Notes: generated by a model not told the origin, from the letters alone. Positions 12,693 through 64,000 are shown, counted from the stretch's first letter. The stretch: 64,000 bases of DNA from Lophium mytilinum (GCA_010093605.1 MU004191.1:1844816-1908815); one strand, 5' to 3'. Translations and numbers: made by a program.

Positions 12693-14778
12693 ATGCCTCT
12701 GCGGCTGAGAATATGCACGCTGCGGATATGGTTAGACTGGCTTCGTCATCGGCCGTGTCTGCCTCTCAGCCTGCCCACCGAGAGCAATTCTCTGCGTTTG
12801 AAACAATTTCTTCTCCAAGAGATCTAGTATGAAGAGTAACATACTCTAATCGGCATCAGTACTCCGCCTAGGGAACCTCATCGCGGTATGACGGCGGAAC
12901 GGACGCCAGCTTTCCTCCGTTGGACGAGCCCTTAACGATCCGATGGCGACGTCGCAAGAGCACTAGGACCACCCAGCGGCGGAACCTCTCCTCTTAATCC
13001 TCCTACTACTCGAAGAACACGTATATTCGATGGTCCCATCAGTGCCAAATCTGCGCGTCGGAGGTCAAGTGCCATCGACTCCGTCGTTTTCCAACCTTAC
13101 GATACGGATAGCGGGGTGAACGAGGAAAGGGAAGAGGAATACTCTGTTTTAAGGGACCTAAATGAGGCGGAAATTAGCACCCCTATGATTGAAGAAGAGT
13201 ACATAGGAGAGGTGTCGAGCGATGTACTATTGGATTTTGATAGCCGTACGAGACTACGGATACAAACTACGGCCAGGCCAGACTCAAAGTCACGATCACA
13301 AGCGCAGAGGGAGAGCGCACGGAGCTTTGGGTCTCGGACAGAATCATGGGCTACTGCAAAGTCCAGACCCTTCAGTCGATGGAGCAGGATATCGAAGATG
13401 TCCAGCACTGCAAGCTTCGTTACGGCAAGAACTGTGGCTTCAAGGTATGACCATTCCTTATGTCTATCCGAGGATATACCGATCTGTCGATGTGGCCTAG
13501 GAAAGCTCCCGATCTAAGTCACCGTATTCTTAATAAATCTGTGCCTTTTCGTTATCCGGTTTGGCTGACTTTTGAATTTTATATAGCAGACATCAAAGTC
13601 TCCTAATAGAACGAAATAGTCATGGCAACTCCCCGTGGCAAAGCACGTTATCTGACATGAACCTGCTCGTACATGCCTCGGTCGAGCAAAACTGGTCTGG
13701 CCGCGGACAACATGCGGAGTACACCCGAGGAGAAGAGGAGAGCATACCGCTTATTCATGAGAAAGTGCTTGGCCACTGTGCGTACGTGCAAGTCGACAGC
13801 GTCCGTTGTAGACGGATTCGTCTTGCTCGCAAGGTTATCCGATGCAACTATCGTTTGAAAAAGGAAGAAGCAATTCAGGAGGTGAAACATATGCAAAATT
13901 TGTGGCACACTCACATCATTCGGCTCGTCGGGACCTACCTATGTGGATTCAAGCTCGCCATTCTTCTTTATCCCGTTGCCGAGTACAGTCTCGACATGTT
14001 TCTTGAAGGATTCCACGACGGAATCGAAATTGAACCTCGATCGTCCAAGCACGTTCTTATGAGGAACTCAATACGTTCATTCTTCGGGTGTCTCGCAACC
14101 GCCTTGACATACCTACACGCAAACCTAATTAAACATATGGATATTAAGCCAAAAAATATCCTCGTTAAAGACATGGGTTCCGCAGGTACTCTGACATACA
14201 TGCGGTATAAGATAATTCTCGCGGATTTTGGTATTGCTCATTCTTACGCGACAGAGTTGGAAGCAGACACCGAGTCTCCAACATCTTTTACGAGGGCATA
14301 TGCTGCACCAGAGCTCGTTGAACAGTCCAAACGAGGTCTTTCCGTAGACGTTTTCTCACTTGGATGTGTTTACTTGGAAATACTCTCTGCCCTCATGGAC
14401 TCATTCACCATTGATTGTACGCGAAAAGTGAGCACGTTTACGCGAGGCGAAACCTACTGAGACGCTTTACTCAGTATCCGCGCAAATGGCAAAAGTACCG
14501 TGGGAGATGGTTTGTACCACGCGAATCTCGACGCCGTGCAAATCTGGCTTTTACAAGCTGTTGATACTTTCTATCAGGTTGCGAGAGAGAACGTGGCGCA
14601 ATTTCATCATCCAGAACAGATCCCAGAACTCGGGTCACTCTCCAAGCAAATGCTCGAGAGGGACCCTACCATGCGGCCTTCGGCAACCAGAGTTTGCCAA
14701 TTCTTCGATAACACTAATCTCTTGCACCCGTGCTGTTGCGATCCTCAGCCCGCTCCTTTTGAAGCGGTCAGCGATTGA
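12693..14778 (+). pseudogene. Fungal Ser/Thr protein kinase with an in-frame stop in the C-lobe (5' end uncertain)
   Basis: NWSGRGQH, ARKVI, HMDIKPKNILV, ADFG, YAAPE, DVFSLGCV. TGA at 14458-14460, then the same frame continues to YHANL...MLERDPTMRPSA (subdomain XI). Intron 13445-13586 links the upstream frame. Confidence 0.75.
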
Positions 14779-44489: not shown

Positions 44490-45087
44490 TTTAATATAGA
44501 GAAAATTAACCTTTAAGAATTACGTGTAGCATAACCTTGCACCGCCGTATTTAACTACTATAACGTAAAATAGAGTATACATGTAAAGAATAATACTTAG
44601 AATATAATATAATAGCGTTCTATTAACTTTAATTTAATTTACAAGCCGTAGTAGTAGCTTAAGGTAGGTATAGAGAGGCTGCAGGGTGCATAGATATAGA
44701 ATGGAAATTACTTAAAGGGTTTAGCATAAGAACAGCCTTGCGCTTAAGAATTAGTACAACTACTACTATATATAACTACTATAATGTAGTATAGAAGAAA
44801 TATATAAAGGATTATATATAATACATAATATAATAGTAATCTATTAACTTAGAATTAATATGTAGGCTATAGTAGTAGTAGTAGTTACATGTAGAGGTAA
44901 GATTCTAAATAATAGAAGTTACTTAAAGAGTTTAGTATAATGCCAGCCTTACACTTAATAAAGACCTTAACTAGCGCTGCATAGAACTACTATAATATAA
45001 GGTTAAAGATATTTATAAGGAAAATTACTTATTATATAATATAATAGTATTCTAGCAATTTAGAAATATTTTATAGGCTATAGTTAT
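44490..45087. repeat. Three diverged ~210-bp tandem units
   Basis: All three units carry aactactataa and atataatag. Units 2 and 3 also share ttacttaaag-gtttag-ata and taggctatagt. Confidence 0.6.
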
Positions 45088-46059
45088 NNNNNNNNNNNNN
45101 NNNNNNNNNNNNNNNNNNNNNNNNNNNNNNNNNNNNNNNNNNNNNNNNNNNNNNNNNNNNNNNNNNNNNNNNNNNNNNNNNNNNNNNNNNNNNNNNNNNN
45201 NNNNNNNNNNNNNNNNNNNNNNNNNNNNNNNNNNNNNNNNNNNNNNNNNNNNNNNNNNNNNNNNNNNNNNNNNNNNNNNNNNNNNNNNNNNNNNNNNNNN
45301 NNNNNNNNNNNNNNNNNNNNNNNNNNNNNNNNNNNNNNNNNNNNNNNNNNNNNNNNNNNGCATTAAATAAAATATATAAAGTAAAGGGTAGAATATAGTT
45401 TATATAACGTTTATAGATAAAGTAATTAATAGGGCTACCGTAGAAAGCCTTCCTGCTAGGGCTCTTCCCTAGCAACCTTAACCGAGTAGCAGTATCTATA
45501 AGGGGTGTTAAAACGGGTTAGGCAGAGTAAGCCCTATAATAAGAATATTAACAAATCCTTATTTTTAACTAATTATACTCCCTAACTACTTTCTACTTTT
45601 TAGCTCTATATTCTAAACTATTATCCCCCTTACTACTATACCTAGTAGTTAGTATAGAACGCCCTTAAAAGTACTAGAATAAAGAAGAGTAAAAAGCAGC
45701 TAAATTATATTTAATAGTAGATTTAAACCAACGCAAGAGAGATAAAAAGAAGAGGGCTATAGACTAAATAGCTGCAGTAGAAGAGGCTAGTAAGCCTACT
45801 TCTACTTCTATTCTAGATCCGTTTCTAATTATCTTTAAAAACCCTAGAGGTCTTTCTAGTATAAACATTAGGGCCCCTTATCCTACCCACCCTGCGCCTA
45901 CGCCCTTTTAACAACTAATTATACCTTAGAAGCCTTTAGAGAAAACTATTATATAACTTATAATTAGTATATCTTTTATAATCTTCTAGTATTTATAGTT
46001 AGGTTCTAATAAACTTAAGTAGAACCCGTCTTAATAAAAGAATTATTACCTTCTACCTC

Positions 46060-46360
46060 TACTTAATCTACGCAATATACTCCTCCGCAGCGGTCTACTT
46101 ATAGTAGTACCCGTTCTACTATTTCTTCTCTATCTATCTAACCTATATAACCTACGTAATATACTCCTCTATAGTAGTCTACCTATAGTAGTATCTATTC
46201 TACCGCTCCTCCTCTATCTACTAAACCCACCTAATATTCTACTCTAGGGCGGGCTACTTATAGCAGTACTTATTCTCTCGCTTCTCTAACTTCTTAATCT
46301 ACTTAACTAATATAACTTTCTTATATCTAGTAGTCTACTAGTAGTAGTACACACTCTAGT
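46060..46360 (+). repeat. ~80-87-bp tandem repeats, probably encoding Pro/Ser/Thr-rich peptide repeats in a RIPed gene
   Basis: ctacgcaatatactcctccgcagcggtctacttatagtagtac, ctacgtaatatactcctctatagtagtctacctatagtagtat, plus further diverged units. Confidence 0.65.
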
Positions 46361-47929
46361 AAGTTAAAAGCGGCCTAATATATACCTAAAATTTAAAGTA
46401 ATATAGAATTAATAGAAGCTATAGAGTAAAATTAGAGTAATAGTAGTAAGTATACTATTATATAGACTATTAAGGGAGCAGCAGTTAAAGAAAAAGAAGA
46501 AGCGGCTAAAGAAAGCGAAGTAAATAAAGAAGTAGCCTAAGTAGATAAAGAAGTAGAAGAGGCAGTATTAGAGTTGCTATTACCTATATCTTCCGCGTTA
46601 TCTTCTTATATACCTGCGTTACTACCACCTCTAAATACTAGAGAGGTATTACCCTCTCTATTACTACCTTCTAGTGTAGGGACACCTTAGTAAGCCGCAA
46701 ATAATAATAATAGAGCTCCGGGCTAAGTTCTACCCGCTATACGCTATCTCTATAAAGTGTTTCTTAAACCTATAGCTATACTATATATATATACAGGCGT
46801 ATATACTATTCTTACCCTCTAGAATACTCTATAGATAGCTATAATACTACACGCAAGTTTACGCGCTTAATAAACTATAGCAGCTCCTACTCCTATATAA
46901 CTAGAACTAATAATATAACGCTAAATACTAGCCCTTATTACTATATTACTACTTTATATACTTATGTAAATAACTAATAAAGAGATTATAGTAGAATTAT
47001 TCTTAGCGCAATAAAATAAGGCCGTAGAAGTGCTCTCTAGAATAGACGCTACGGAATAAATAGATAAGAAGGAAATGCTAGCTAATATAAGTTAGTTTAT
47101 ACAACTAGCGTATAATAATAGTTAGGTTTAGATAGAGTAGTACGCTGCCTTATTATCTCTCCGCCTAACGCTAGTAACTAAGGTTATAGAAGAGGAATTT
47201 ACCTAATTTAAGAATAAGGTAGAAGCAGGTGCAGATATAGATAAGGTATTAAATAATAGAGTTAAAGAGGGTAGAGAAGGTATATATACGCAAGGATAGT
47301 AAGATACTATAGATAAATTACCGGGTTTACTTAATAAAGTTACGCTAGAGAATTAAGGCAGTAGGGTAGATAATATAGCCTTAAATAGTAAAGGCAATAG
47401 TAAGATTATAGATAAAGTTATAGATAAGATAGACCCTAATAGGTAAGTATTATAAGCCCTATAGTTTATATAAAGCTAATATACGTAGGTATAATAATCT
47501 ATTAGTAAATACTCTATATATAGTAANNNNNNNNNNTTAGAAGTCTAGTATACTTACTATATATCTTAACTCTTTCTATTTAGATAATATAGTAGCTAAT
47601 ATTATAATATAGCAAGTAACTATATAATAGTTCCTTAAAGCAGATCCCTTAGCTAAGTTACTAGCTTTCTTCTAGCTTAGAATCTTTCCTTCTAATAAGA
47701 GCCTATTACAGCTAATACAGCCTTCTATTTAATAAGCCAACTAGAGCTATTATAGAGAGAGGATAATCCTAACAACTTTAATAATATCCTATAGAAATTA
47801 ATATTAAGCAGAGAAACTAGTAATATAGAAACTCTAAGGCTTAGTTTTATAAGGTCTAAAGCTAGCTTTATAGCGAATAAAGAGATTAAAATCCGGCAAG
47901 TATATAATATTAATAGCATTATTATTAGC

Positions 47930-50300
47930 ATCTCTACTTTAGCGGCCTATAATTTATACTTCTTACTATTTCTATAACTATCCTTTCTCTAAAGTATTAC
48001 TTAAAACTAATATATTATAATACGCGGCTATAAGCTCTATATAATAAAGCAGCTTTACATAGAGTATAGATATAAGTATTAATTTAAAACTTATATATTT
48101 TTCCCCTAGATATTAACACTAAATAAGTAGAAGGGTAGTACTTTGCATCTACTAGATATAATATAAGCAGCTTAGCTTAATAATATTATCTTACCTATAG
48201 TAAAGTATACTCTAATATCTAATAAGTAGTAGTATATACTATACAGTTTTAATATTATATAGAGTAAAGCAAGCGTTAAGAAAGAAAAATATATAATATT
48301 ATCTAGAGACTCTTATATTAATACTAAGTATATAATTCTATAGTATTAACTCTAAGAATTCTAGAACTAAGTTCTTTATAATGTAGAAAACTTTATAGAA
48401 ATAGATACTATACCTAAAGATTTATTTAAAGAAGTATTCCTAGTAGTCTTAGGTTATAATCTAAAAATAGTATATAAGTCCTTAAGTATAATTTAAAGTA
48501 GAAATTAGCTACTACGTACTTTAACTACTACTTTTAATAAAAACCTAATTAATATACTAGATAAGGGGATATAGGTTAACTATAGATATAAAGATATCCT
48601 AACTACTAATTAGCTAGATACCGGGGTTACCCTTCTACATAAAACTAGCTATAACAACTACTAGGCCACTTACTTCTATAATAGTGGAAAAGAAAAGATT
48701 TATATAATATTATACCCCTACTATCTTACCTAGGGCGCGTTATCTCTAATAGTAGAGCTCTAAGCAGGCAACTATAGCCGTATTAGTAGTATAGCATATA
48801 ATAAAATCTATAATAGTAATAAGATTATACTTAAGTTACCTATTAAGAATATTACGCCCTTTTATAATACTTAACTAGAAGCTCTTGCGTTCTTAACTAA
48901 AATAATTAAGTAGTAGTTTAAAGCGGCAGGTAGCTCTAAAGGATTATTAAAAAGAAAATAGCTTTAGAATAGTCTTACTACTATTCTCTAACGCCACTAT
49001 ACTATACTCTAGAGAGATAGATACTTATTCTATAGGGTTTAAACTAAGTTCTAAGTACTTCTTACTATACTTAAGCAACTTAAAGAAAGCGTAAGTCCTA
49101 AATTTACTATAAAGGATAGGCTAGATAATAGTAGTAAGCCTTATTACCCCTACTAGGTTCTTTCTATAAAAGAAGTTAATACCTTTACTATTGTAAACCT
49201 TAATCGCTAGGTATTCCTTTTCCAGGTACTATCTCTTTAGATTACCCCCGGGCGTAATACTAGGCATGTAGCAATACTAGATAAATAGCTAGTAAATAGT
49301 TATTTAGCATTTCTTTATATCCGCCTTACATAAATTACTACTAGATATAGTAATTCTACTTAATTATCTATACTATAGAAAAAAGAGTAGATAAATTAAA
49401 AAGACCCCTAGAATCCTGTAATCTTATATAGCCTTAGGTTATTAGACTTCCTTAAAAAGTATAGCATAGCTTAGCTAAAGTTAGAGTACTTAGATTAGAT
49501 AATAACGCCCCTATAACTTAGTCCTTAAGGCGTTAATTAACTGCAAGCCGGCCTTAGAAATTAATTCTAAGCTATATTTACTAAAGCTTAGATCTAGGTA
49601 TCTCTTACTAGGGAGAATATAGAGATGCGGTATCTATAGTATAGCATTACAGCATAGTACACGCTAGCTATTTAACGTAAAAATAGAACTAAAGTATAAA
49701 AAGATTAGTAATTAGTACCGCTATAGATAGGTAAGGCAGCTGCGCTTATTATTAAGGCATACTATACTAATATATATAAGCTTCTAAGTAGATAATACAT
49801 AGAAGAAGATAGAAATACTAAGATATAATAGAAGAGTAAAGAACTACGCAACTAATTTCTTAAGAGTATTTTAAATAGATCTATAGTTGCGCTTTATCCT
49901 AATATACTTATAAAGCTATATAGAAAGTTAGAACTTATAGTAAGCTACGCCTATATGCGGAATGTAGCTAGAAATAGTAATATAAATTATCTAAGGCACT
50001 TAACTAGACGCTAAATTAATTAAGTCTAGCCGCTATTTAATATTACGGATCTAGCTGCAGAAACTTAAAAATAAAATAATAGTCCCTTCCGCATAAAATT
50101 GCAAAGATTAAATGCAATAATTAGAAACAAAGCGTTACTAAAAACGGTAGAATAATTTCTTAATAATTTATAAGTAAAAGCCGCCTTATTACTCTAGATT
50201 CTTCTAAGATACAATAATAATAAAATTTTAACTACGCGTTAAGCTAAATAAAACAACTCTAAAGATATATAAGATAATATTAGGGGAAGAGATATAATTA
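47930..50300 (+). pseudogene. RIP-inactivated large protein of unknown family (motifs WxDxGxEDxP, GGxxYNKxYNxxK, SYGxRxExR)
   Basis: Manual de-RIP gives FLQSITQNQHIVIRG, TYVFFP, VFLVVSGHDLK, WVDYGYEDIP (48572), GVTLLHK, GGVAYNKIYN..K (48785), PF...LEALAF and SYGVxTEFxV (49028). An acidic N-terminal part may extend back to ~46980. Confidence 0.55.
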
Positions 50301-53300
50301 TAAATATATAGTAGATCTATATGCAACTATTAAATAGCTACTACTATAAGGTAGCCTAACTAAGCTAATATATTAAAGAATAGGCTTAAGGGGGGGTAGT
50401 TAACCTTAGCATAGACGTAGTTGCAAAGGAAGTATAGAATATAACCTAGGGAAGCCCAGGAAAGTTAAAGACAATAATAATAGAGGATAATATTATAGGC
50501 CCTAGAGGTTAAGTTAATCTAAAATATATCTAGCTTAGGTTTAAGCACTATATACTAAATAGCCCAAGGGCTTATTTAGGCAGAATTCTAATAATTAAAG
50601 AATTCTAGAATTATTTAGCAATATAAAAGAAGCAAGAGAGGAATATAAGTAGTTAGTTATTAGATAAAGAGTATAAGTATAAAGAGAGTTTAGGTAACTA
50701 TAGCTTAGAAATAGAGGACTTAGAGGACTTAGGGTAAGAGGTCTAGAAGAATAAGGCTTAAGTAGAAGAGTTTTAAGAAGTATATAGATTTAAGCGTTAA
50801 TAGGTAGACTAGTAGGGGCGGCGTTATAAAGAAGAATTATTAATAAGAGAGGTAGTAAAGTATTTAGTATAAGATATAAAGGGCGTTAGTAGAAAGGCTT
50901 CTAGCTAGGCTCTTATATAGTACGCAAATACTTATCTAGTAGGTGTATAGTAGTAATATATATAAGAAGAGAGGTAATAATAGGCGTACTTAATATAAGT
51001 AGTAAAGGGCCCTAGTAGAAAGGCTTTCTAGCAAGACCCTTATACTATAGGTAAATAGTTATACAACAACGCGCAATATTCTATTAACCTATCTTAGCGC
51101 AGTACTGTATTACTAGAACTAGGCGATATATAGCGTAGTATTATAGATTAACCGTAAACATTTATATATTAGCGAAATTAAGTAAAACGCTAATATATTT
51201 ATACCTGTAATATTTTAACCTTATATAATATATAGCCATTATATTAACCTTAAGAGTTAACTTAAGTAGTTTACTATTAAAGGCTTAGCGTCTTAGCAGC
51301 CGGCGGCTATTAGCCCGGCCGCCCATAAACTTATCCACCGCCTAGCAGCTTTAACTTTCTTACTTTTATACTAATCTCTCCTTCTATACTACCGCACCCC
51401 CATTACTTCTACTTATCTAGCTACCTGCGGAATAGTTGCGCGCTAGTTTCTTATTTACTAGATAATAGTTAGCAGCTTTCTAGCTATATTAGAGCCGCAA
51501 TTAGCTAGTTTTAGGCGTTCTTTTAGCTAGCGGTTAAGCCTTTTAGTAAGTTTACTATCTAGCAGGTAAAATTAAGTTACGTTATAGCTAATTCTGCTAA
51601 TAGGTTTATTCTATTGCAATTTCTCTAAGAGTAGAGTAAGGTAAGCGTATTATAAGAATTATTATAGAAAGGCTTCCTGCTAGAGCCCTTTACTAGTCTT
51701 AGTAGATTAGTCTACCTTAATTTTAAAGATGCGGCGGCAGGAAATATTAAGAAAATAATAATACTAAAAATACCCAGTATAGTGCATAGGGTCTTAGTAG
51801 AAAGCCTTTCTACTAGGGCCCTTTACCTGCCTTCTTTCTTCTATTATTTAAGATAAGCTAATATATTAATAGGCTAGCTATAAATACCTTAAGCAACGGG
51901 GACCCTAGTAAGGTAGTAGTAAAGGTTGCATCCCTATATATATTACCTATAACTAACCTAGTAGATAGCTATAAGAAATAATCTACTTCTTCTAAAGTAC
52001 TAGAAGATTTAAATTCTACCTCTCTACTAGTTACTAAATTAGGGGTTAATGCCTATGTTAATTTAAAGCGCAATTAGCCGGCCACTGCAATAAATCTAGA
52101 GACGCTTGCATTAGTAAATAGCAAAGTAGTTTATCTAGATAGCGATAACTATAGTAATAACTCTAATATCCCTAAGAACTCTAATAAAGAGTAAGAAAAG
52201 CTTTAAGCGCTAGTTACTAGCAGTAGGAAAGATAAAAAGTTAGAGAAGTTATAGGCCTTAGTAAATACGCTATATGCTAGTAGAATAAAGTTAGCTAAGC
52301 TTTATAGTTAAATAAAAGTAGAACTTAAAGTAATTCTAGCTAAGCCTAATTTCTAAGTAATTTAGAATAAGTATAAGGATAGGTATTTAGACCTAAAGCG
52401 CGCCGTATACAGTTAGAATTAAGGGGCTAGTTTTACTACTATTCTAAACGCTTTTAAGACTAGCGAGTTGCATAATCTATAGTAATATACTACTCCTTAG
52501 CCTAAGATAGATAACTATAAACCCGTAGATTAGGTAGCTTAATTTATTAGTTAATGCTTTAATTACTACCAGAAGCGGTTTAGTGGGTTTTTGCACAACC
52601 GCGCTAATATTACTAATAATAAAGCGCTTAGAATCTTCTTTAAATTAAAGAAAAATATAGAATTTAAGAGTAGCCCGTCTTAAGCTAGTAGGACCGCCTA
52701 TACTAAGAACTAAATTAAGATATAGAATGTTCTTTAAAAAATAAAGCTTAGTCTAGTACCGGCACCTAAGACCCCGGCCAAAACTATTACTTATAGTAGT
52801 AAGAATATTAATAGGAAGCCTTTCTATTAAGGCCCTTCTAGGCCTCCCTGTTAGCAGTCGCCCTCTTATTTTACTAAGAAGAAACTCGCGGCTATTAACA
52901 TAGAGGTTAACGTAGACAACCCTATCTAGGAGTTATCTAAAGAGGAAATTACTATAAACCTAGTTAATAAGAAGAAAGGTAACGTTAATATTACTAGCGC
53001 TAAGTATATTACCGGCACTATAAAATAGAAGCTTAAGTTAGTAATTATGCATGCTAAGCGCACTAGAGTAATAATTAACTAGAACTCGTTAAAGTTTTAA
53101 TATAACGCATATTGGGTAATTAGATAGATAGTAGGAGATTTTATATATACTATTAAATAGCACCTAAATATGCGCGCTGTAGATTTAAATAAGAATAAGT
53201 ACGCTAATCTAGATAGTATTAAATATGCCTAAGATATAGAGGCTAATATAAGGGCTACCGCTATTAATATAAAGAATATTATCCTCTTTACTATACTAAC

Positions 53301-53449
53301 CGCAGTAGATCTTACAACGTAGAGTACACTCCGCCTTCTAATAACTAATAAAGCCTATTAGCTAGATAACCTTAAAGAAGTAATAAAGGCCCTACGCATT
53401 TATAACTATTGGAAACCCCGCCTTATTATAATAAATAGTAATATTTACT

Positions 53450-55560
53450 TAAGGTAGTAGTAGATTACCGGGGCTTACTATATATACTATATTATATAGA
53501 AAGGCTTTCTTAGTAGGGCTTTAATTACAGATAAGGTTAGTATTAGAAAGATATTTTTAATAGCTACCCTTATTAGATATATAAGCAATTTCTCTTTAAA
53601 GGGTATTAATAGAAAGCCTTTCTACTACCCCCCTAATAGTTTCTCTTAGCATCTACTAATTTAATTATAGCTTATTACTAAGCGCTAGCGCAAAGTTATA
53701 GATAAGAAAGACCCCGGGCTAGTAAAGCCCTTTTTTTTTCTTATGCCTCCCGTTTTAGTATACTAAATAGTAAATAAACTTATAAAGTTTAGTTCTAAAC
53801 TTAAGCTCTATATCTATTTATTAAAGGGCTAAGTTACTTTCTATAGCGCTATATTTCTACATAATACCTTAACTAGAAACTATTCCTTATTTAATACTAA
53901 AAATAAGGTAAATGCTAAGAGCATTGTAATCGCCAGCTATTAGGTAATAGCTAGTCGGCACGGTCCCTAGCCCGCATTAAAGTAGTATAGCAATAATAAT
54001 CTTACTAAGCTAAAGAACTAGGTTAAATATCGCCTAAGCTCTACCTAGCCCGGTTTCTTAAGTAGCTATTTTAACGTCTAATTTATAGATAAGTGCTAGC
54101 TTATTAAAAGTAACTAAGTAAACCTCCACCTAACCGCGTTATAGCTTTACTTAGACTTTACTATACTCTATAGTAGGACCCTACTATATATAGGTATTAC
54201 TAATATGCCTACTTATATATCTTTTATAGAACTAAGAGATAAGTATTTATAATTCTGCACATACCGCTTAAAACCTAGTAAAGCTAAGTTTATTCCAGGT
54301 ACTAATAATCCGTTTAAGCTTCCTAATAACTATTTAGGTGTAATTTTCTAGTATACACGCAAGGCTTTTAAAAATTTTATTCTACCTTTATTTAACCTGT
54401 AAGTTATTATATAAAGGGCCCTAGTAAAAAGGCTTCTAGCTAGGGCCCTTATCTCTTCTCTTATTTACTTTAATTTTTTAATATTTCTCTAGGATTATAT
54501 AGGGGCTTTATTTACGCTTAATTTTTAGTAAGTATATAATTACTCGCTTATACCCTTCTATATACCTAAATAATTCTACTAATCCTGCCACCTAAATTAG
54601 AGGATTACTTCCGCGGTTAGTTACGCGAGTAATTAAGCTATAGCCTATAAAACTAGGCTATATTATCTATACTAATAAATTACTAAGCTACCTTAAGTTA
54701 TTAATAGTTTCTACTAAGAACTGTGTAGGCTAGCGCACCTATATATTTAATATATGCTCTATATATGCTCTTAACCTTATAAGTACTGCGCTATTTTTAG
54801 TCTACTCTAAGCGCGCTATAATAGCATATCCGTAAGAGAAGGTCTTAGATTTAAAGGGTAATAAGATTAAGAACGGCCCAAAAATCATCCCTCTTAAGAA
54901 TAATAGCGGTTACTAGTTAAAGGAAATAGACGTTTTGCAAGGCATAATAAAGTAAATTACCCGGAATAAGAACGTCTAAACTAACCCTAATTAGAAAGAC
55001 TTTAAAGCAAAGTCCGCACCCTTTTATTATATTATCGCTCTTTTTATCCGTAATGCCCCTAAAGTAGCTACACTACTATACTATTTAGCTAATAACGTTA
55101 TTAAGCGTATAGAGAAGGTTATTATTTAGACTAACTACCTAAATAAGTAAATAATTCTTGCTAAGATTATTAACTATTATAAAATAGATGCTTATATACT
55201 AGCCTTTAATCTCTCTACTACTAACCGGGATAACTTTATCTTAGTGTTTAACAACCCCGACTCTAAAGTAAAGATTCTTATTACTAGTTACTAGGCTAAT
55301 AGAGCTAGGCTTAATCTATAGTCTACTTATTATAATATATATCTTTTTAACCCTGCAGGCTCTATTTAGATTAAGAAGCAGGTAATAGCGCGTTTCTATA
55401 GAATTAGCTAGAAGTTTACTATTATAGTAACCGCGTTCTTTATCTAGGACACATTTAATGCCTTTACTCTCTCGCGCTAGGTGTAGATAGCGCTTTCCGG
55501 TCTTACTACTGCGTTAAACACTAACTAGATTAAGGTAGAGGGGACCTCTAAGGAAAAGCT
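53450..55560 (+). pseudogene. RIP-inactivated SNF2-family helicase/ATPase (core domains; full gene likely longer)
   Basis: Observed SRALITDKVSIRKI de-RIPs to GGALIADEVGIGKT (~53512-53553). Then motif Ia (MPPVLVxQ), IVIASY..RHGP, DKC*>DECQ (54088), SRTL>SGTP (54172), APK, EKVII, RARLNL*>GAGLNLQ (55301) and QVIARFYRIS*>RIGQ (55379). Motifs are in correct order and differ only by G>A/C>T. Confidence 0.85.
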
Positions 55561-58500
55561 AACCCTAGATAGCTAGTATGCGTAGATAACCTATAATAAT
55601 AAGAGTATTGCACCCCGCCTTATTATAGGCAAAATAGATATTTTAAATATGCCGGTAGAATTATATATTAAGCGCTTTAACTCCCTATAAGATATTCTTA
55701 TATTTCTAATAACCCTTATGCAAGGTAATATAACTTTTTAGTCTAGTAGGTTTAGTAATAAGTTCTAAGAAAAATAAGCGTATAAATTTACTAAATTAGA
55801 ATTAGAAGAAGAGTAGAAGAAGGGTGTAAATAGAGCGCCTAAGAAACCGCGTATTAATAAGCTAGGTTTAAGGCTTAAGTATTATCCTGTAAGTAGTAAG
55901 TTCGCCCTTATAGGTTCTAGCGGGAAGGCTTTCTACTAGGGCCCTACTTACCTTTTTATACTTTGCTAATCCGTGTTTTATAGTAAAAGCTACCCTAAAG
56001 CTAAAGCTAAAGACACTAGAGTAATAAAATAGTAAAGCTTTAAAGTAGAAGCGCAAAGCTAGTACTATACTAGCGGCTGCTATTAAGAAGTATAAGCCTA
56101 ACCCTAAGTCTACTATTATAGTTAAAGACTTAGATTCTACTAAATCTAATATGCCTACCCCTATAAAGAGCACTACTAGAAAGGCTTATAGCCCTTTTAT
56201 CTATTAATATAGGCCGGAGCGTAACCCTTTATATTAAGTCCCCGCTGTTTTTAGTAATATAGACAGCAATAACTCTTTTAGTAGGCTAAATAGTAATAAC
56301 TCTAAAGGTAAAAAGTATAAGAATAATACTTTATTCCTTGCAAAGTATATAGGTAAGAATTTATTCTAGGGCCTTTTTAGAAAGCCTTTCTACTAGGGCC
56401 CTTTAGCATCGCCTATTATACTGCTTAAGTGCTAACTATTATAATAGCTTCTACTTCCGCCCATTAACCTACTTTAACTCTACCTTCTAGCCCTCTTAGT
56501 ACCTTTAATAGACGCCTTATTAGGACCTCTTCTATAGACTCTATTCTATTACCTAATATATAGAAGAAGAGGTAGCGTAGAGTTTCTACTATCTCCTTAT
56601 AGAATTCTATAGATAATCTAGTTTTTTATTTACTACTAAAAGCTAACATTAATATAGATAATAACTAGACTAAGAGTAATAAGTAGAATAAGAAGAATAT
56701 TAAAACCCCCGACGTTAATATAGAGAACGTCCCGTCTAAGACTAATAAGTAAAATGGGGGGTATCTTAATAATTACCCGGATTTTACTACTACGCTATCT
56801 AAAGTTGCCTTTAAGCGTAATAGCAACTACAGTAGTAACTTAAATAACCCGCCGGAATTTATAGAAGAGGCCTTGTAGCTAACCTTAAAAACTATATCCT
56901 CTAGTAATACTAATAAGGGTTAGAAGCGCTAAGGCGCAAAAAAGAAGCCTACTATAAAGAAGGATAAAGTAGCTAAGAAAGACCCTATATCTAAATTCCT
57001 TATATATTGTCCGTACAAGTATATAATAAAGAAAGAGATTACTAAGTAGCGCCCTTAGCGCGAAAGAAAGGCTACTAAGAAGAAAGCTACTGCGTAGAAG
57101 TCTATAAACTCTACTAGACTAAAAATAGACCTACGCAGGCGGAAGAATAATCCTAATATTAGCTAACCGCCCGCGGTATTAGGTATAGATACTAACCCTA
57201 ATAGTAAAGAGAATAGTAGTAAATTAGAGGGGACTAGTATAGTGCTGGAGAAGTCTAATAGTAAGGTATAACTAGTAGGGTTTTTATAGAAAGGCTTTCT
57301 ATAGGGGCCCTTACCCTACTTTTTAAATTTAGTTTAGTATCTCTTAATATCTTTTTTTTTTTCTTTCTAACAGTTCTAATTAGGACTACTTTTCTTGCTA
57401 TTAGTTTGCACCTACTTACTTAGTACTGCTAACTTTTTACTATCCTAATTTCTTACTTACGTTCTATCCTCTACCCCCTAATAGTTAGTACTACTCCGCA
57501 GTAGTAGTATACTTTATACCCTTAAAATCTCCTAGTTTATATTTAGCCTCTAGATAGCGGCTTACTTAACTATAGAATATAGCGTAATATTTACTACTAT
57601 AACTATGCCTTGCGTATCTTATGCATAATATAATATTTATTTTATTTATCTATATTATAGAGGGCGGTCTCATCCACCGTAGTTTATGTAGTTAGAAAGG
57701 GTAATTACATTCTAATGCTGCTCTATTATATCTATACTATTAGCATGTACTTTCTATCTTTTTTATAGTAAAGAATCTGCTATTATATACCCTGTAATTT
57801 AACCCTTTTTACTAATATTAGTTATATAGCTAGGCTAAGTTCTCTCTATAGACTCTATCTATTAATACACTATATATAACTTTATTCTACCTATAGTTCC
57901 CTAAAGCGTATATTATTATATAATGCCTAAACTAACTAGAAGAAGAATTATTTATATATATTATTATTAAGTCTTTAGCGTACTAGGCGGCGGAAGGTAA
58001 TTTAGGTATTACAGTTATACTTTCTAGTTTATTAGCAATATATTTAGACCTGCTTATTATTAGTAAGAATAGTAATTCTTAAAGGGTTATAGTCTTACCG
58101 TTTATTACTTTTAATATAACTTTCCTTCTTCTTATAGTTATAAATAGTCTCTATATTATAAATAGAACTGCTCTTTTATTCTAGTATTTTCCTTTACTTC
58201 TATTCTTATAGCCATCTTAATAAGCGCTTTAGCCGTATAAGCTTCCTTCTTATAATAGAATCTAGAGTAGTATTTATAACCTCGCGCCTAGATAGAGTAT
58301 TAGGCGTAGTAAGAGAAGAAGCTAACTACTCTATTAGGATATATATATTGGGTAGACGTAGATATATCTACCCCTGCTAAATATTATCCTTAGCGTTTAG
58401 AGTTACTATGCTGCTGCGCGTTAACCTTAGTATACCGGGCTATATTTTATATACTTTAGCCTAGTTTAGAGTTGCAGCCGTCTCTATATTAGGTTAGGCC

Positions 58501-60668
58501 GCTTCTTATCTTATAAATATCCACCAGAACGCTCTAGAAAGAATATATATAGTATACTAATTAAAACTTACATATAGTATTATACGTAGGCTGCTACTAT
58601 ACTATAAGGGGTAGGTAGTAGTTAGAAAAAGGTTTAATGCGCTAGTTTCTATTAATCTTAGTATATTACGTGCTAACCTCTTATATTATATCTATACTTA
58701 TAATTAACCTTTAGAGGTTAACTTTATATACTATATATAAATAGCAGCTCTAAGAGTTTTATTTTATTACTATACTATACGTATATTTTATCTTAGGCGG
58801 AACTAGTAGGTTCCTATAATATATAGTTTATATAACTATACCCTGCGTTGCTTTAGCGCCCGCCTAATTTACTCTTCCTCTCTTTTCTTACTTTTTTAGC
58901 TTATTTCTCTCTACACTATAGCTGCAGGTAAACTAACAGCTAGAACTAGCATAGGAGAGACTTTTAATTATATTTAAGGCACTTTAGAGAAATAGTTTAA
59001 CGGTATATAAAGTTTTAAAGCTAGTAGGCTATGGGAATACCTATATAACTAACTTAGAAGAGTAGTATACTAAGAATAGCACCGCCATAATAGGTATACT
59101 AATAGGCTCGGGTACTATTACTTAGAACCCTCTTCTTAACCCTAATATACCTAGTAATACTACAGATCTTACCGCATAAAATGCTAGAGAGGAGTTCTTA
59201 TTATTTATTTCTAAAATAACTTCTAAGCTAGCTAATATAGACTAACCCTATACAACTAAACCGCTTACCGCGGAGGATACTACTAACCCTACCTACATTT
59301 ATGCCTAGAGAGAAGCACTTCTTGCAACTATCTAGAATTAAAATAGAGGTTCCCTTTTTAGTAATAGCCTAGGCATGCCTACTAATACTACTCTTAATAT
59401 ATAGCCTACTATAACTAAGTCTTAAACTCTCTATAACTATGCTAACCCTCTATTCTAAGCTACTAGAGATAGCGCCCTACCTTCTAAGTCTAATATTAAT
59501 ATTAAGCCTAAACTAGCTAATAAAGTTAATATAAAGATTAAGCCTAGTATTAAGATTAAGCCCGGCCTTATAAGCAGCCTGGATACTATAACTTTTTTAA
59601 GGATAATTTTAAGGATAAGAAGCTTCTACGCTTATAGATTAATATAGAAGAGAAGAAGGTAAGGGCTATATAAATAAGGTTTAAGGCTATAGCTAGAGAG
59701 CGGAAGCGGTAGGGCCTAATCTACTTCTAAATTTAAACCTTAAATAGAAGTAGTAGCGCTTTAACCTATTTCTATCTCTACGCGCTCATTAGTAAACACC
59801 TAACTCTTTATTTAGCGCTGCTAGGCCCTTACTATTCCCTAACCTATCTTCTCCTTTAATAGTAACGCGTCCCTACTTTTCTAGAACTATACTCTAGCCC
59901 TCTACGCTATCTATATGGAAATCGTCTAATAGGCTTTACTCTTTTACTTTACCTTACTTTTATTTCCTTCTTTAATAGCTTTATCTCTACTCTTCTACTA
60001 TTAGTCTTATCTTTTTCTACTATAGCGGAGCCTCTAGACCTAACCCCTAGTAATAGTACTAGTTTACCCTTTACTACTATAGTAAAACCTAAAGATTTAT
60101 CTTCTATTACTACTACTACCGCGTTGCTAACTTGCAAGCTCTAAAATTATAGATATTGCAGGAAGAAAGCTACTCTAAGGTATAGTTACTATGCTAGCAT
60201 TATCTACTACAATATAGATTATTAAAAGGCTAACTAGAAATTATCTAATACACCGCCTTCTTACATAAAGGTTATTACACCATAATAAGACTTCTATACT
60301 TTAGCTTAAATTTACTAATAGATAGTAAAGAGCGTAAAGTTTAGTAGATTATCTAAGGGGTAGAAATTAAAATAGGCTCTAGCTCTATTATATAACTATA
60401 AGCTATAATATACTTTACCTCTTATAAACTTAGCCCGCTATATATAAATATAGAGTCTCTCCTGCCTAAGCGCTAAAGAATAACTTCTAGTAGAGTAGCT
60501 GCAGCTACCCTAGCTTATATAGATTAAACTAGCACTCTACCTTAGCCTTCTTAGGCTAGCCTTTAACCTTATATATATACTAGCATAGGTAGTAATAATT
60601 ATTCTTATTCTTCCTTTATACTAAGCTTAATTACTACGCCGCTTTCTAGCTTTAAGAAGAAAAGAAAG

Positions 60669-61804
60669 ATAGAGGTTGTAGCTCCTCTTAGTAGTTAGAA
60701 CTCTACCCTACTATTAATAGATTAGATATATAGAGGCTCTATTCTAGGTACCCTAAGCATGCTATAAAACCTTCTTAGTATTAATAAGTTTAAGAAGTAG
60801 TATAAAGCCGCCGTTACCGCCGCTAGAGCCTAAGCCTAATCTACTCTCTAACCTATTCCTATCTCTATATGCTTATTAGTAAATACCTAGCTCTTTATCT
60901 AGCGCTGCTAGGCCCTTACTATCCCCTAACCTATCTTCTTATTTAATAGCAACACCTTTCTACTCTTCTAGAACTATACTCTAACCCTCTATACTGCCGG
61001 CTTTCCCTACTCTCTTACTACTACTAGCCCCTTTACCTTTAAGAAAGAAGCTAAAGAAGCCGCCTCTACTCTTAGCCTTACCCTCCTCTTCTCTCTTAAA
61101 GCCTTAGGTATAGTCTCTACCCCTAGTAAAACTAAAAAATGTACTCTAACTCTAACTTTTACTACTACTACCCCTAAGAAACCCTAGAAAAACTTTACTA
61201 GTATTCTTATAGAATTCTACTAAGCCTCTAAAATTTCTATTCTAACCTTTACTAAGTTTAAAACCGGCACCTACTTCTCTACTAAGCTATCGCTAGCCTT
61301 ATACCGCCCGGAGGACGCCCTCTTTAGTAGCCGCGCTATACTCTACCTATTAAAGAAAGCGGCTTATATAGCTATAGTAAGAGAGGTAGTACTCTAGCTA
61401 TATATAGGGATAGCTACCCGCTATATATAAGCCCGTGTTTAGAAAGAAGTAGTAGAAGATAGTAGAGGGTTCTAAAAACGCTGCAGTGTAGCTGCCGGGT
61501 AGTATAGTAGCGCAGGTGCTAGCACTAGCAAGCAAGCTAGGGCTACTATAGCTGGAGTATTAGTAGGCGGCGCTAAGTACGCTAGTGCCGGGGCTATCTA
61601 TAGTAAGTAGTTTATTCCCGGGGAGTAGAGTAGGTAGAGAGAATAGAGTAGTAGCAACGGCAAGGTATATAGTTAGAAAGAAGGCGGTAAGGAAAAAGTA
61701 TGCGCAGTTAATAGGAATAGAGTTAGAAGAAGTATTAGAGAGGAGGAAGGGGGTGTTAGAAAAGGTATTAGAGAAGGGGAAAAGAGAGGTAGAGATAAGG
61801 GAGG
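60669..61804 (+). pseudogene. RIP-inactivated protein with three double-stranded-RNA-binding domains, copy 1
   Basis: De-RIP reading: NTQLFIQRCQALAIPQPIFSF...PFTSKKEAKEAAS..GL; ENFTSILMEF.Q....PTFTEF...FGG....PSKKAA.AAVAREVV.WL; AAQVLALASKLGL.QPEY...ARHVVGKKAAREKCAQL. Confidence 0.75.
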
Positions 61805-62953
61805 NNNNNNNNNNTATAAAGATTAAGCCTAGTATTAAGATTAAGCCCGGCCTTATAAGTAGCCTAGATACTATAAGTTTTTTAAGAATAATTCTAAGAA
61901 TAAGAAGCTTCTGCGCTTGCGGATTAATATAGAAGAGAAGAAGGCAAGAGCTATATAAATAAGGTTTAAGGCTATAGCTAGAGAGTAGAAGTAGTAGGGC
62001 CTAATCTACTTTTAAATTTAAACCTTAGATAGGAGTAGTAGCGCTCTAATCTATCCCTATCTCTACGCGCTTATTAGCAAATACCTAACTCTTTATCTAG
62101 CGCTACTAGGCCCTCGCTATCTCCTAACCTATTTTCTTCTTTAATAGCAACGCGTTTCTACTCTTCTAGAACTATACTCTAGCTCTCTACGCCGCCTATG
62201 CAGAAATTATCTAATAGGCTTTACTCTTTTACTTTACCTTACTCTTATTTTCTTCTTTAATAGCTTTATCTCTACTCTTCTACTATTAGTCTTATCTTCT
62301 TCTACTATAGTAGAGCCTCTAGACTTAACTTCTAGTAATAGTACTAGTTTACCCTTTACTACTATAGTAAAATCTAAAGATTTATCTTCTATTACTACTA
62401 CTACTGCGTTACTAACTTATAAGCCCTAAAATTATAGATATTATAGAAAGAAAGCTACTCTAAGATATAGTTACTGCGCCAGCATTATCTACTATAATGC
62501 GGATTATTAAAAGGCTAACTAGAAATTATTTAATACGCCGCCTTCTTACATAAAGGTTATTGCACTATAATAAGACTTCTATACTTTAGCTTAAATTTAC
62601 TAATAGATAGCGAAGAGTGTAAAGTTTAGCAGATTATCTAAGGGGTAGAAATTAAAACGGGCTCTAGCTCTATTATGTAACTATAAGCTATAATATACTT
62701 TACCTCTTATAAACTTAGCCCGCTACGCATAAATATAGAGTTTCTTCTATCTAAGCACTAAAGAATAACTTCTAGTAGAGTAGCTGCAGCTACCCTAGCT
62801 TATATAGATTAAACTAGCACCCTACCTTAGCCTTTTTAGGCTAGCCTTTAACCTTATATATATACTAGCGTAGGCAGTAATAATTATTCTTATTCTTTCT
62901 TTATACTAAGCTTAATTACTATACTACTTTCTAGCTTTAAGAAGAAAAGAAAG

Positions 62954-64000
62954 ATAAAGGTTGCAGCTCCTCTTAGCAGTTAGAACTCTACCCCGCTATT
63001 AATAGATTAGACACGTAGAGGCTCTATTCTAGGTGCCCTAAGCGTGCTATAAAACCTTCTTAGTATTAATAAGTTTAAGAAGTAGTATAAAGCTACTATT
63101 ACCGCCGCTAGAGCCTAAGCCTAATCTACTCTCTAACCTATTTCTATCTCTATACACTTATTAGTAAATACCTAGCTCTTTATCTAGCGCTGCTAGGCCC
63201 TTACTATCCTCTAACCTATCTTCTTATTTAATGGCAATACCTCCCTACCCTTTTAAAACTGCACTCTAACTCTCTACGCCGCTAGCTTTCTCTACTTTCT
63301 TACTACTACTAGCCCCTTTACCTCTAAGAAAGAAGCTAAAGAAGCCGCCTCTACTTTTAGCCTTACCCTTCTCTCCTCTCTTAAAGCCTTAGGTATAGTC
63401 TCCACCCCTAGTAAAACTAAAAAATATACTCTAACCCTAACTTCTACTACTACTACCTCTAAGAAACCCTAGAAAAACTTTACTAGTATTCTTATAGAAT
63501 TCTACTAAGCCTCTAAAATTTCTATTCTAACCTTTACTAAGTTTAAAGCTAGCACCTACTTCTCTACTAAGCTATTACTAGCCTTACACCGCCTAGAGGA
63601 CGCCCTCTTTAGCGGCCGCGCTATACTCTACCTATTAAAGAAAGCGGCTTATATAGCTATAGTAAGGAAGATAGTACTCTAGCTATATATAGAGATAGCT
63701 ACCTACTATATATAAGCCCGCGTCTATAAAGAAGTAGTAGAAAATAGTAGAGAGTTCTAAGAATACTATAGTATAGCTACTAGGCAGTATAGCAGCGCAG
63801 GTGCTAGCGCTAGCAAGCAAGCTAGGGCTACTGCAGCTAGAGTATTAGTAGGCGGCGCTAAGTGCGCTAGCGCCGGGGCTATCTATAGTAAGTAGTTTAT
63901 TCCCGGGGAGTAGAGTAGGTAGAGAGAATAGGGTAGTAGTAGCAGTAAGATATATAGTTAGAAAGAAGGCGGTAAGAAAGAAGTATGCGCAGTTAATAGT
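62954..64000 (+). pseudogene. RIP-inactivated triple-dsRBD protein, copy 2 (cut by window end)
   Basis: Same reading as copy 1 at +2285. It retains some ancestral bases lost in copy 1 (aatggcaa, aactgcact, agcggccgc). Confidence 0.75.

Follow-up and report, generated by a model that had tools for sequence, protein, structure and literature searches.

We analysed 64,000 nucleotides on one strand of the Lophium mytilinum genome (GCA_010093605.1 MU004191.1:1844816-1908815; hereafter the window, numbered from its first base), in which a block mutated by repeat-induced point mutation (RIP) carries two large coding relics on the + strand and, between 45.4 and 57.3 kb, twelve copies of a palindrome of about 36 nt. 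The first relic belongs to a protein family of the Pezizomycotina, which we call the WDVDS family (our own label, from a motif in its alignment), and the second resembles SNF2-type ATPases. A first-pass annotation had put this unit forward as a candidate undescribed mobile element; its observations proved largely right and its interpretation partly so.

A RIP-mutated block with a confined palindrome

The first 42,400 bases are ordinary DNA, rich in genes and with a GC content of 0.43-0.60, and from 42.4 kb to the end of the window the GC content is 0.22-0.40. The RIP signature was detected in all 2-kb bins between 42001 and 64000 (n = 11; TA/AT 1.65-2.48, (CA+TG)/(AC+GT) 0.22-0.34), compared with 0.47-1.04 and 1.03-1.39, respectively, in the 21 bins before 42 kb, hence the RIP-mutated block is wider than the unit first reported. 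A gap of 272 N ends 71 nt before the first palindrome and conceals where the unit really begins on the left, so that its apparent left end is an assembly artefact and no biological border.

The palindrome core TAGAAAGSCTTTCTA has nine matches in the window at up to two mismatches, all within 45441-57301 (0.32 expected; nine were reached in none of 100 shuffles). A repeat search recovered 11 copies of the unit of about 36 nt, and the inclusion of more decayed copies brings the total to 12 (Table 1). No copy occurs elsewhere in the 64 kb, the count being zero across the neighbouring 42.4 kb of intron-bearing genes. Judging from the less mutated copies, the sequence was probably about 36 nt long and perfectly palindromic at first. 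The best-kept example (copy 11) folds at -17.7 kcal/mol (z -2.77); two of five folds were no better than shuffled sequence, and other copies are weakened by RIP. Rfam gave no match at E ≤ 1 over 45360-57337.

Palindrome copies 1 and 2 bracket the first gene, making a 5.45-kb unit. A profile of 42 relatives matches the window once, over the core of this gene (E = 1.4e-90, profile positions 31-903 of 1022), and a HMMER scan with 47537-50860 returned 103 cluster representatives at E ≤ 1e-3, with 49 at E ≤ 1e-10 and four at E ≤ 1e-30. Fragments aside, the relatives are 1000-1500 aa long; members with a named source come from eight species (Lepidopterella palustris, Pseudogymnoascus sp., Xylographa bjoerkii, Gallowayella concinna, Coniosporium apollinis, Variospora aurantia, Vezdaea acicularis and Pycnora praestabilis) and are all annotated as hypothetical proteins. 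The 42-member alignment contains 17 invariant columns, with D, D, E, H, C, K, R and Y among them and with D88, D90, D307, E465 and Y383 invariant in the numbering of member P0002, and the motifs WDVDS, CHVFFP, QHHP, TRDAGS, AYNKAYN, FGVRQEYR and HxPYWILPT. Motif guesses made by eye (an integrase-like W-x-V-D, a Y-x-x-x-Y pair, an H/D/C triad) were dropped as unsupported. Pfam holds no family for 18 of the 19 scanned relatives of the window's gene, no Pfam family is common to more than one of the 42 aligned members at E ≤ 1, and no fused form of at least 2642 aa was found, which is weak evidence.

Because the Ser/Thr/Pro/Tyr-rich 84-nt repeats at 46059-46301 sit in the frame of the WDVDS core, and because several relatives of 1400-1500 aa carry N-terminal extensions of 400 aa, the stretch from 45.96 to 50.86 kb can be read as one gene with the repeat probably at its N-terminus, which would leave two genes in the block, not three. 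One relative, the 143-aa fragment P0001, is 72% identical to the window's RIP-mutated translation and has a RIP-like composition of its own, which suggests that it derives from a second, independently mutated copy somewhere.

Downstream, stops make up 3.6-7% of one + frame in each segment between palindromes and 10-20% of its other frames. Searched against PDB, segment 54503-55888 matched zebrafish Rad54 (1z3i, E = 6.6e-4 over 141 residues); the next SNF2 matches were Chd1 chains (E 0.26-0.56), ranked after non-SNF2 chains of FCF1/Utp24 (E 0.17-0.19). A Pfam scan of the unit in 63 pieces of 400 aa, with stops read as X, gave Helicase_C at E = 0.06 over 55076-55402, below the curated cut-off and seen in two overlapping pieces; RIP decay reduces the sensitivity of every Pfam scan of the RIP-mutated DNA in the window. 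A Porin_10 match from the same pieces (E = 0.33) was noise, and whole read-through frames of about 3000 aa on both strands returned nothing by what is too insensitive a method. We read the string RFYRISX as the RIP product of motif VI, RxHRIGQ, and by eye a DEAH-like string can be made out in the presumed N-terminal lobe. An SNF2-type C-terminal lobe is thus supported by the predicted translation and a complete ATPase is not. A word-index homologue search with the RIP-mutated SNF2 piece scored none of 3925 candidates, as the index fails on such sequence.

Several of the palindromes in and around this second gene appear to sit in introns. GTAAG lies 27-40 nt upstream of five of the 12 palindrome centres (0.33 expected; five were reached in none of 2000 random placements) and [GA]TAAG, which allows for the RIP change G>A, upstream of eight (1.15 expected). 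The enrichment is confined to the + strand, with none for the mirror donor motif on the opposite strand. Intron models of 94, 88 and 95 nt could be drawn around copies 9, 10 and 11, and removing all three yields exactly the observed downstream frame classes; the first folds into a hairpin with a minimum free energy of -23 kcal/mol (z -2.33). On this frame evidence, palindrome-cored, introner-like introns are well supported as predictions for three copies and plausible for several more. Among the sequencing runs listed by a word search, two of one sample, which may be the source sample, contain 0.49 and 0.47 of the words, and none is an RNA run. A second GTAAGT 7 nt upstream of the copy-10 donor creates the nested GTAAGTAGTAAGT (55889-55901); the alternative donor at 55889 does not fit the observed frames. 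Together with the nested donor-like GTAAGGTAAGC at 51636, it recalls donor-disrupted stwintrons.

The first-pass annotation was therefore correct in reporting a private palindrome (12 copies, all in 45.4-57.3 kb) and co-oriented coding relics with one favoured + frame per segment, and the large protein that it could not place is real, belonging at E = 1.4e-90 to a conserved, enzyme-like, unannotated family. Its separate Pro/Ser-repeat protein probably dissolves into the WDVDS gene, whose frame the repeats share, and its full SNF2 ATPase is reduced to the part with motifs IV-VI that matches Rad54, the N-terminal lobe remaining without a match.

Table 1. Features of the window and of related loci. 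Positions refer to the window unless a locus is named; class denotes frame class.
Feature	Position	Strand	Remarks
N run, 272 N	45088-45359		gap or mask; inside the RIP-mutated block
N run, 10 N	47527-47536		inside the RIP-mutated block
N run, 10 N	61805-61814		inside the RIP-mutated block
Probable low-complexity N-terminal extension	45960-47716	+	same frame as core (coordinate mod 3 = 2)
WDVDS-family core	47717-50290	+	RIP-mutated, intron-less relic in one uninterrupted frame
Putative C-terminal tail	50291-50860	+	acidic and basic low complexity; ends about 20-40 nt before palindrome 2; predicted from translation
Palindrome copy 1	45431-45466		centre 45449; upstream bracket of WDVDS-family gene
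Palindrome copy 2	50880-50915		centre 50898; downstream bracket of WDVDS-family gene
Palindrome copy 3	51006-51041		centre 51024; flank repeats that of copy 2 (spacing 126 nt; 83% identity over 41 nt)
Spacer	51043-51652		no preferred reading frame
Palindrome copy 4	51655-51690		centre 51673; nested donor-like GTAAGGTAAGC (51636-51646) upstream
Palindrome copy 5	51788-51823		centre 51806
Palindrome copy 6	52802-52837		centre 52820; same frame both sides; may be read through in frame
Palindrome copy 7	53487-53522		centre 53505; left arm degraded
Palindrome copy 8	53600-53635		centre 53618
Palindrome copy 9	54415-54450		centre 54433; within 94-nt intron model
Palindrome copy 10	55911-55946		centre 55929; within 88-nt intron model
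Palindrome copy 11	56368-56403		centre 56386; within 95-nt intron model
Palindrome copy 12	57277-57312		centre 57295; GTAAGG upstream; no frame stands out downstream (after 57314)
Frame segments, class 1	51825-52799, 52839-53484, 53637-54412	+	
Frame segments, class 2	54452-55908, 56405-57274	+	
Frame segment, class 0	55948-56365	+	
SNF2-like ATPase relic	51825-55895	+	putative coding 51825-52799, 52839-53484, 53637-54398 (class 1), 54493-55895 (class 2)
SNF2 C-terminal lobe, motifs IV-VI	55058-55480	+	query residues 186-326 to Rad54 1z3i residues 399-538
Coding segment	55984-56352	+	class 0, 3.6% stops; basic tail of SNF2-like gene or further exon
Last coding segment	56448-57260	+	class 2, 5.5% stops; Lys/Asn/Ser-rich
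Intron model, 94 nt, copy 9	54399-54492	+	donor GTAAGT, acceptor TAG; class 1>2
Intron model, 88 nt, copy 10	55896-55983	+	donor GTAAGT, CTAAT, TAG; class 2>0
Intron model, 95 nt, copy 11	56353-56447	+	donor GTAAGA, CTAAC, TAG; class 0>2
Palindrome TTGGCATGTTAACATGCCAA	L002/3/4		
Palindrome AAGTTGCCAGCTGGCAACTT	L010, L014, L015		3, 7, 9 copies (strict); 3, 13, 18 with up to 4 mismatches
Palindrome AAGTTGACCGCGGTCAACTT	L011		also L026 with one centre base changed
Palindrome TCGGCATGAGCTCATGCCGA	L022		
Bracketing palindrome centres, window	45449/50898		
Bracketing palindrome centres, L002	1044/6082		
Bracketing palindrome centres, L014	8506/13114		
Bracketing palindrome centres, L022, second copy	2625/6998		
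Bracketing palindrome centres, L011	9244/14578		

The remainder of the RIP-mutated DNA consists of flanks in which a six-frame Pfam search of 42.4-45.1 and 57.4-62.4 kb (36 pieces) found no transposon hallmark; three matches with E values of 0.015-0.065 were dismissed as noise. To the right, 59530-64000 comprises a 2285-bp unit present twice in tandem (91% identical over a 300-nt reference stretch, with sub-repeats of 1087 and 1198 nt), and the second 10-N run falls exactly at the junction of the two units; this is either a RIP-mutated satellite or a scaffolding artefact. To the left, 44548-45084 holds two repeat pairs of 211-221 nt that are 72-73% identical, about four units altogether, which abut the 272-N gap; the gap may conceal further units of the array.

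Relatives of the WDVDS gene and their private palindromes

The family was followed in 27 metagenome loci (L001-L027) from a scan with an 11-sequence family alignment. Intact single-frame copies are present in L001, L002-4, L010, L011, L015, L022 (two tandem paralogues) and L026. Decayed copies were found in L014 (45 stops), L013 (17), L023/24 (30 and a frameshift), L008 (6) and L027, and also in L018-20, where several frameshifts have accumulated and the first 290 or so residues are missing. The intact relatives are under purifying selection, with dN/dS of about 0.13 and 0.15 in two intact pairs. L014 is a RIP-mutated copy of the pristine L015 in one metagenome: the two are colinear over at least 12.6 kb (L014:9593-22635, L015:1-12669) and of the 983 positions at which they differ, 981 have changed C>T or G>A in L014. 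L014 carries one 416-bp insertion (13241-13656) relative to L015, and the pair constitutes a clean natural case of one-sided RIP.

Recurrent palindrome families (imperfect palindromes, arm 10, at most two mismatches, at least three recurrences) were detected in nine of the 27 loci and not at all in the 42.4-kb gene-rich control. Every palindrome core matches essentially only its own lineage (Table 1); in L001 and L018-20 the gene is accompanied by single palindromes of the AAGTT...AACTT type. In loci with both flanks present, palindromes lie on both sides of the family gene and span 4.4-5.5 kb. With the strict detector, a palindrome was found within 150 nt after the stop codon in five of 14 gene copies (L010, L015 with its RIP-mutated copy L014, the second copy of L022, L018 and L007), against about 0.05 expected per copy at the density of the control (binomial P = 4e-4); the downstream copies in the window and in L002 were missed by this detector because they have more mismatches.

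Palindromes also occur in frame within the gene, at one linker position between FGVRQEYR and HxPYWIL, where they encode K/R-LTAVN or ELPAGNL. The pattern L[TP]A[VG]N is present in seven of 130 stored proteins (five distinct), compared with 0.25 expected, and the extragenic copies share the lineage-specific centre of those in the open reading frame (ORF). In-ORF copies are located at L011:11564, 12350 and 13785, L015:1768, L010:1521 and L026:328; the copy at 11564 is the only one of the three in L011 at the homologous linker, with 12350 and 13785 at two further positions. In total, L011 has five copies inside the gene or within 0.7 kb of it and none in the remaining 17 kb or so. The tandem paralogues of L022 (3-1898 and 3033-6866) are co-oriented and only about 22% identical to other members; between them, at 2625, lies a palindrome whose full length is about 50 nt.

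The neighbours of the family gene vary between lineages. In L002/3/4/17 it is followed by a co-oriented gene for a 1583-aa OrsD+DEAD+ResIII+Helicase_C protein that is RecQ-like (RecQ5, E = 1.5e-37). This protein is intact at L002:6647-11395, with an N-terminal OrsD domain (DUF3505), some 830 aa of unknown sequence and the RecQ-like core, and in L011 a homologue is present as fragments upstream of the family gene. Around 13 longer loci we scanned 131 flank ORFs (34 of at least 200 aa, 97 of 110-199 aa), which include Tc1-type DDE_3/HTH, gag-like DUF4939/zf-CCHC, RNase H, ankyrin, kinase and Rrp7-like sequences. Neither SNF2 nor DUF3435 was detected among the 131, and no helicase among the scanned flank ORFs of L001, L015/L014 (12.6 kb downstream), L018-20, L022 and L023/24. 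BLAST searches of the relatives' neighbour ORFs against the window, and of window exons against the loci, returned only low-complexity or RIP-composition matches. The gag-like ORFs of L001 (6622-7578; DUF4939, zf-CCHC) are co-oriented with the family gene 2-3 kb upstream of it and probably belong to an unrelated retroelement remnant. Contigs L002 (1-143) and L004 (1-120) open with a 12-nt satellite, (TGTTAGGGATAA)n, that contains TTAGGG and is followed by TTAGGGTTAGGGG; the telomere-like array of L002 is about 2.9 kb upstream of the family gene and its polarity reads as wrong for a chromosome end.

Competing readings of the palindrome-bracketed gene

The reading we favour, tentatively and at somewhat less than even chances, is that the block at 45.4-57.3 kb is a dead, RIP-mutated copy of a formerly repeated unit, in which the enzyme encoded by gene 1 acted on the palindromes as cis sites. 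Such a unit would hold two + strand genes, the WDVDS gene (about 45.96-50.86 kb) and the SNF2-type relic (51.8-57.3 kb), and the former would encode an enzyme of the unit itself, one that processes DNA in the manner of a transposase or recombinase and probably works on the palindrome as a dimer. Palindrome copies may have been seeded into nearby DNA, where those landing in transcribed sequence could persist by being spliced via a GTAAG donor just upstream or read through in frame, and RIP would have killed the whole block once more than one copy existed. We infer the enzymatic role, the recognition and copying of the palindrome by the protein, and the mobility. Because a selected gene, private brackets with further palindromes close by and a range of intact to RIP-mutated copies recur across lineages, a selfish element with a palindrome-acting protein seems to us a better account than an ordinary host gene.

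The first-pass view of a RIP-mutated, formerly repeated unit is supported by the RIP indices in 11 of 11 bins and, indirectly, by the second fragment P0001 and the related pair L014/L015. Its architecture has to be redrawn. Rather than just marking the ends of a 12-kb element, the palindromes bracket a 5.45-kb gene unit (two copies) or lie in intron-like units downstream, and the left border is hidden by the N gap; more likely, a 5.5-kb palindrome-bracketed element lies beside an SNF2-type gene that was colonised by the same palindrome, all of it inactivated by RIP. Nor does SNF2 appear to be a conserved partner of the element, since none was found among the 131 flank ORFs scanned in relatives and two lineages have a RecQ-type helicase instead.

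Several observations weigh against a palindrome-acting WDVDS protein and its accompanying introns. The loci were picked for holding the family gene, so the specificity of the palindromes for it rests on the flanks only. In L015/L014 and L022 palindromes are spread over 8-14 kb, past other ORFs including the Rrp7-like one, and may therefore be a dispersed genomic repeat and not sites of the WDVDS protein. Palindromes are also not universal, as L001, L018-20, L023/24, L025, L008 and L007 have no recurrent family; L023/24, L025 and L008 have no palindromes at all and L007 only an unlike one. Inspection by eye of the sequence next to the palindromes of L002 and L022 showed no target-site duplication. 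The family also has no match among PDB sequences (profile search), NCBIfam or PADLOC, and two Atlas look-ups gave scores of at most 0.83 or no usable match. The nineteenth relative scanned with Pfam, P0055, did hit DDE_1, but matched with only a 50-residue query stretch, 18 times, and was set aside as a composition artefact. In the second gene, the N-terminal SNF2 lobe has no Pfam or PDB match at E ≤ 1, a signal that RIP may have erased, and up to E = 10 the PDB matches are only unrelated AP-1 and ulvan lyase chains; the description of the palindromes as introns of one SNF2 gene is thus partly inference. Lastly, the copies at 52820 and 53618 lie between segments in the same frame, and for 52820 no intron model of fitting length was found.

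An ordinary pair of accessory genes, duplicated and then mutated by RIP, would account for the locus if the palindrome were an independent introner-like or MITE-like (miniature inverted-repeat transposable element) repeat that multiplied there by chance. We think this rather improbable. Fungi are known to have multi-copy introns built around a palindrome, the units in the window measure 88-95 nt and have canonical-looking splice signals, and in L015 and L022 the palindromes reach well beyond the family gene. The likeness is to introner-like elements (van der Burgt 2012, Collemare 2013) and to the (stw)introns of Hypoxylaceae (Fekete 2021), which resemble one another, run to about 90-110 nt and have canonical donor, branch and acceptor signals together with a strong hairpin or central palindrome; nested donors like those of the window are found in stwintrons. 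Extracts from two papers describe the introner-like elements as longer than regular introns, with stable structures and an unknown mechanism of multiplication (PMC3609843), and the Hypoxylaceae "sister" introns as 93 nt long with a central palindrome (PMC8469720); no target-site duplications and no known copying mechanism are reported for either in these extracts. However, the 12 copies are confined to one 12-kb RIP-mutated block, two of them bracketing a large gene, and the intron-bearing genes of the adjoining 42.4 kb contain none. Spread through unrelated genes of the whole genome, by which introner-like elements are defined, is not seen in these neighbouring 42 kb. With its perfect 36-nt palindrome, the core differs from the WTTCTAGAAA core of Hypoxylon (PMC8469720), and the relatives' palindromes are mostly outside introns. 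Those of L011, L001 and L018-20 stay close to the family gene alone, a palindrome of this type recurs at the conserved in-frame position in at least five distinct proteins, and lineages differ in their palindrome yet keep the layout.

The block may alternatively be the relic of a multi-copy subtelomeric or segmental block of the Y'/telomere-linked-helicase (TLH) kind, spread by recombination between chromosome ends in place of transposition and struck by RIP for being repeated, with the palindromes as regulatory or 3'-end signals of its genes. In several lineages they follow the stop codon by 15-132 nt, which would suit such a signal, and L002 and L004 start with the TTAGGG-containing satellite. 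Subtelomeric repeats of yeast (Y'), Magnaporthe (TLH) and Fusarium oxysporum resemble our loci in combining a multi-copy helicase with large hypothetical proteins, mutated by RIP in sexual species, and L002 shares the helicase type. According to extracts of one preprint, subtelomeres of F. oxysporum are multi-copy, 7-19 kb long, and encode helicases of 1454-1531 aa with the domain set of the L002 protein (DEAD, Helicase_C, ResIII, OrsD/DUF3505) as well as 1255-1543-aa hypothetical proteins; the preprint also cites RIP acting on the telomere-associated helicases of Nectria (bioRxiv 10.1101/2023.02.05.527183). Nevertheless, the window's helicase is of the SNF2 type, the same extracts describe no comparable palindrome layout, and the window has no tandem array (two or more units) of TTAGGG/CCCTAA. 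The array in L002 has, as we read it, the wrong polarity, and most family loci lie amid ordinary transposable-element debris and genes, not beside telomere repeats. A subtelomeric origin would further leave the in-ORF palindromes and their lineage-wide concerted change unexplained, and we regard it as distinctly doubtful.

Our main reservation about novelty is that the element could belong to a described DNA-transposon lineage with a Pfam-less transposase, most plausibly AcademH, and that the palindromes are its terminal or subterminal repeats; we judge this unlikely. AcademH elements encode a transposase and a superfamily-2 helicase; the lineage was reportedly defined by Kojima (2020, Mob DNA 11:15). 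Later papers describe AcademH as encoding a transposase and a helicase (PMC10799480, PMC10045372), state that DEAD and Helicase_C domains derive from AcademH and KolobokH elements and that AcademH is low-copy in Ascomycota (PMC10799480), and give its target-site duplications as 9-10 bp (PMC10045372). Compared by description only, the likeness lies in a large Pfam-less enzyme gene beside a superfamily-2 helicase gene in a low-copy Ascomycota element of about 10 kb (L002: 1.0-11.4 kb). The family gene is followed by the same-strand RecQ-like protein in L002/3/4/17, has fragments of its homologue upstream in L011, and in the window adjoins a helicase-type gene. Against this, most WDVDS loci are without a helicase, including the scanned flanks of L001, L015/L014, L018-20, L022 and L023/24, and the helicase of the window is SNF2-type, not DEAD/RecQ-type. 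Inspection by eye found no 9-10-bp duplication next to the outer palindromes of L002, which need not be the true ends of its element. To our knowledge, repeated internal palindromes are not a feature of Academ.

Of other known classes, the hallmarks of Starships, Helitrons, KDZ elements and retroelements were found neither in the block, nor in its RIP-mutated flanks, nor beside the intact relatives, in agreement with the first-pass annotation. The unit is like a Starship in being large (at least 12 kb), in having an enzyme-like gene at one end followed by others and in being found RIP-mutated in Pezizomycotina, but it differs in that no DUF3435 captain was detected in 63 pieces of the unit, 12 long frames, 42 family members, the relatives' flank ORFs or the 36 flank pieces of the window, where that annotation had proposed to look and where RIP lowers sensitivity. 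DUF3723, FRE, PLP and NLR were likewise not seen in these scans. As a working analogy, Helitrons, REP/RAYT and IS200/IS605 pair an enzyme with family-specific hairpins or palindromes on which it acts, often with an associated helicase and with palindromes near the enzyme gene; this likeness is one of logic, not of sequence. No Helitron_like_N, PIF1 or HUH/Y1 domain was detected in intact relatives and no Helitron hallmark in their flank ORFs, and Pfam found no KDZ transposase domain in family members.

Implications for fungal mobile elements and introners

Should the WDVDS gene turn out to encode an AcademH transposase or a subtelomeric protein, the locus would be an ordinary RIP-mutated repeat with an unusual palindrome habit. 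Searches of published full text, with supplements outside their scope, returned no description of the layout (Starship, SNF2, giant element, helicase, palindrome), and the palindrome strings themselves matched only two unrelated primers. The analysis also flags a fungal family of more than 100 clusters without a Pfam, NCBIfam or PDB entry.

The multiplication of fungal introner-like elements has been an open question since 2012. According to a 2025 survey, how introners are mobilised is still almost wholly unknown, and about 72% of families stay unclassified there (PMC12130899). The link between a selected gene of about 1000 codons, the palindromes that bracket it and palindrome-cored introns offers a concrete protein and concrete DNA sites. 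At its boldest, and we think this improbable as matters stand, the WDVDS protein may be the transposase or recombinase of an undescribed superfamily of DNA elements in the Pezizomycotina, whose palindromic ends are shed as satellites into its own ORF and into neighbouring genes and persist there, either encoding peptides in frame or forming the centre of new spliceosomal introns. If this is true, fungal introner-like elements would gain in this family their first candidate for an autonomous partner.

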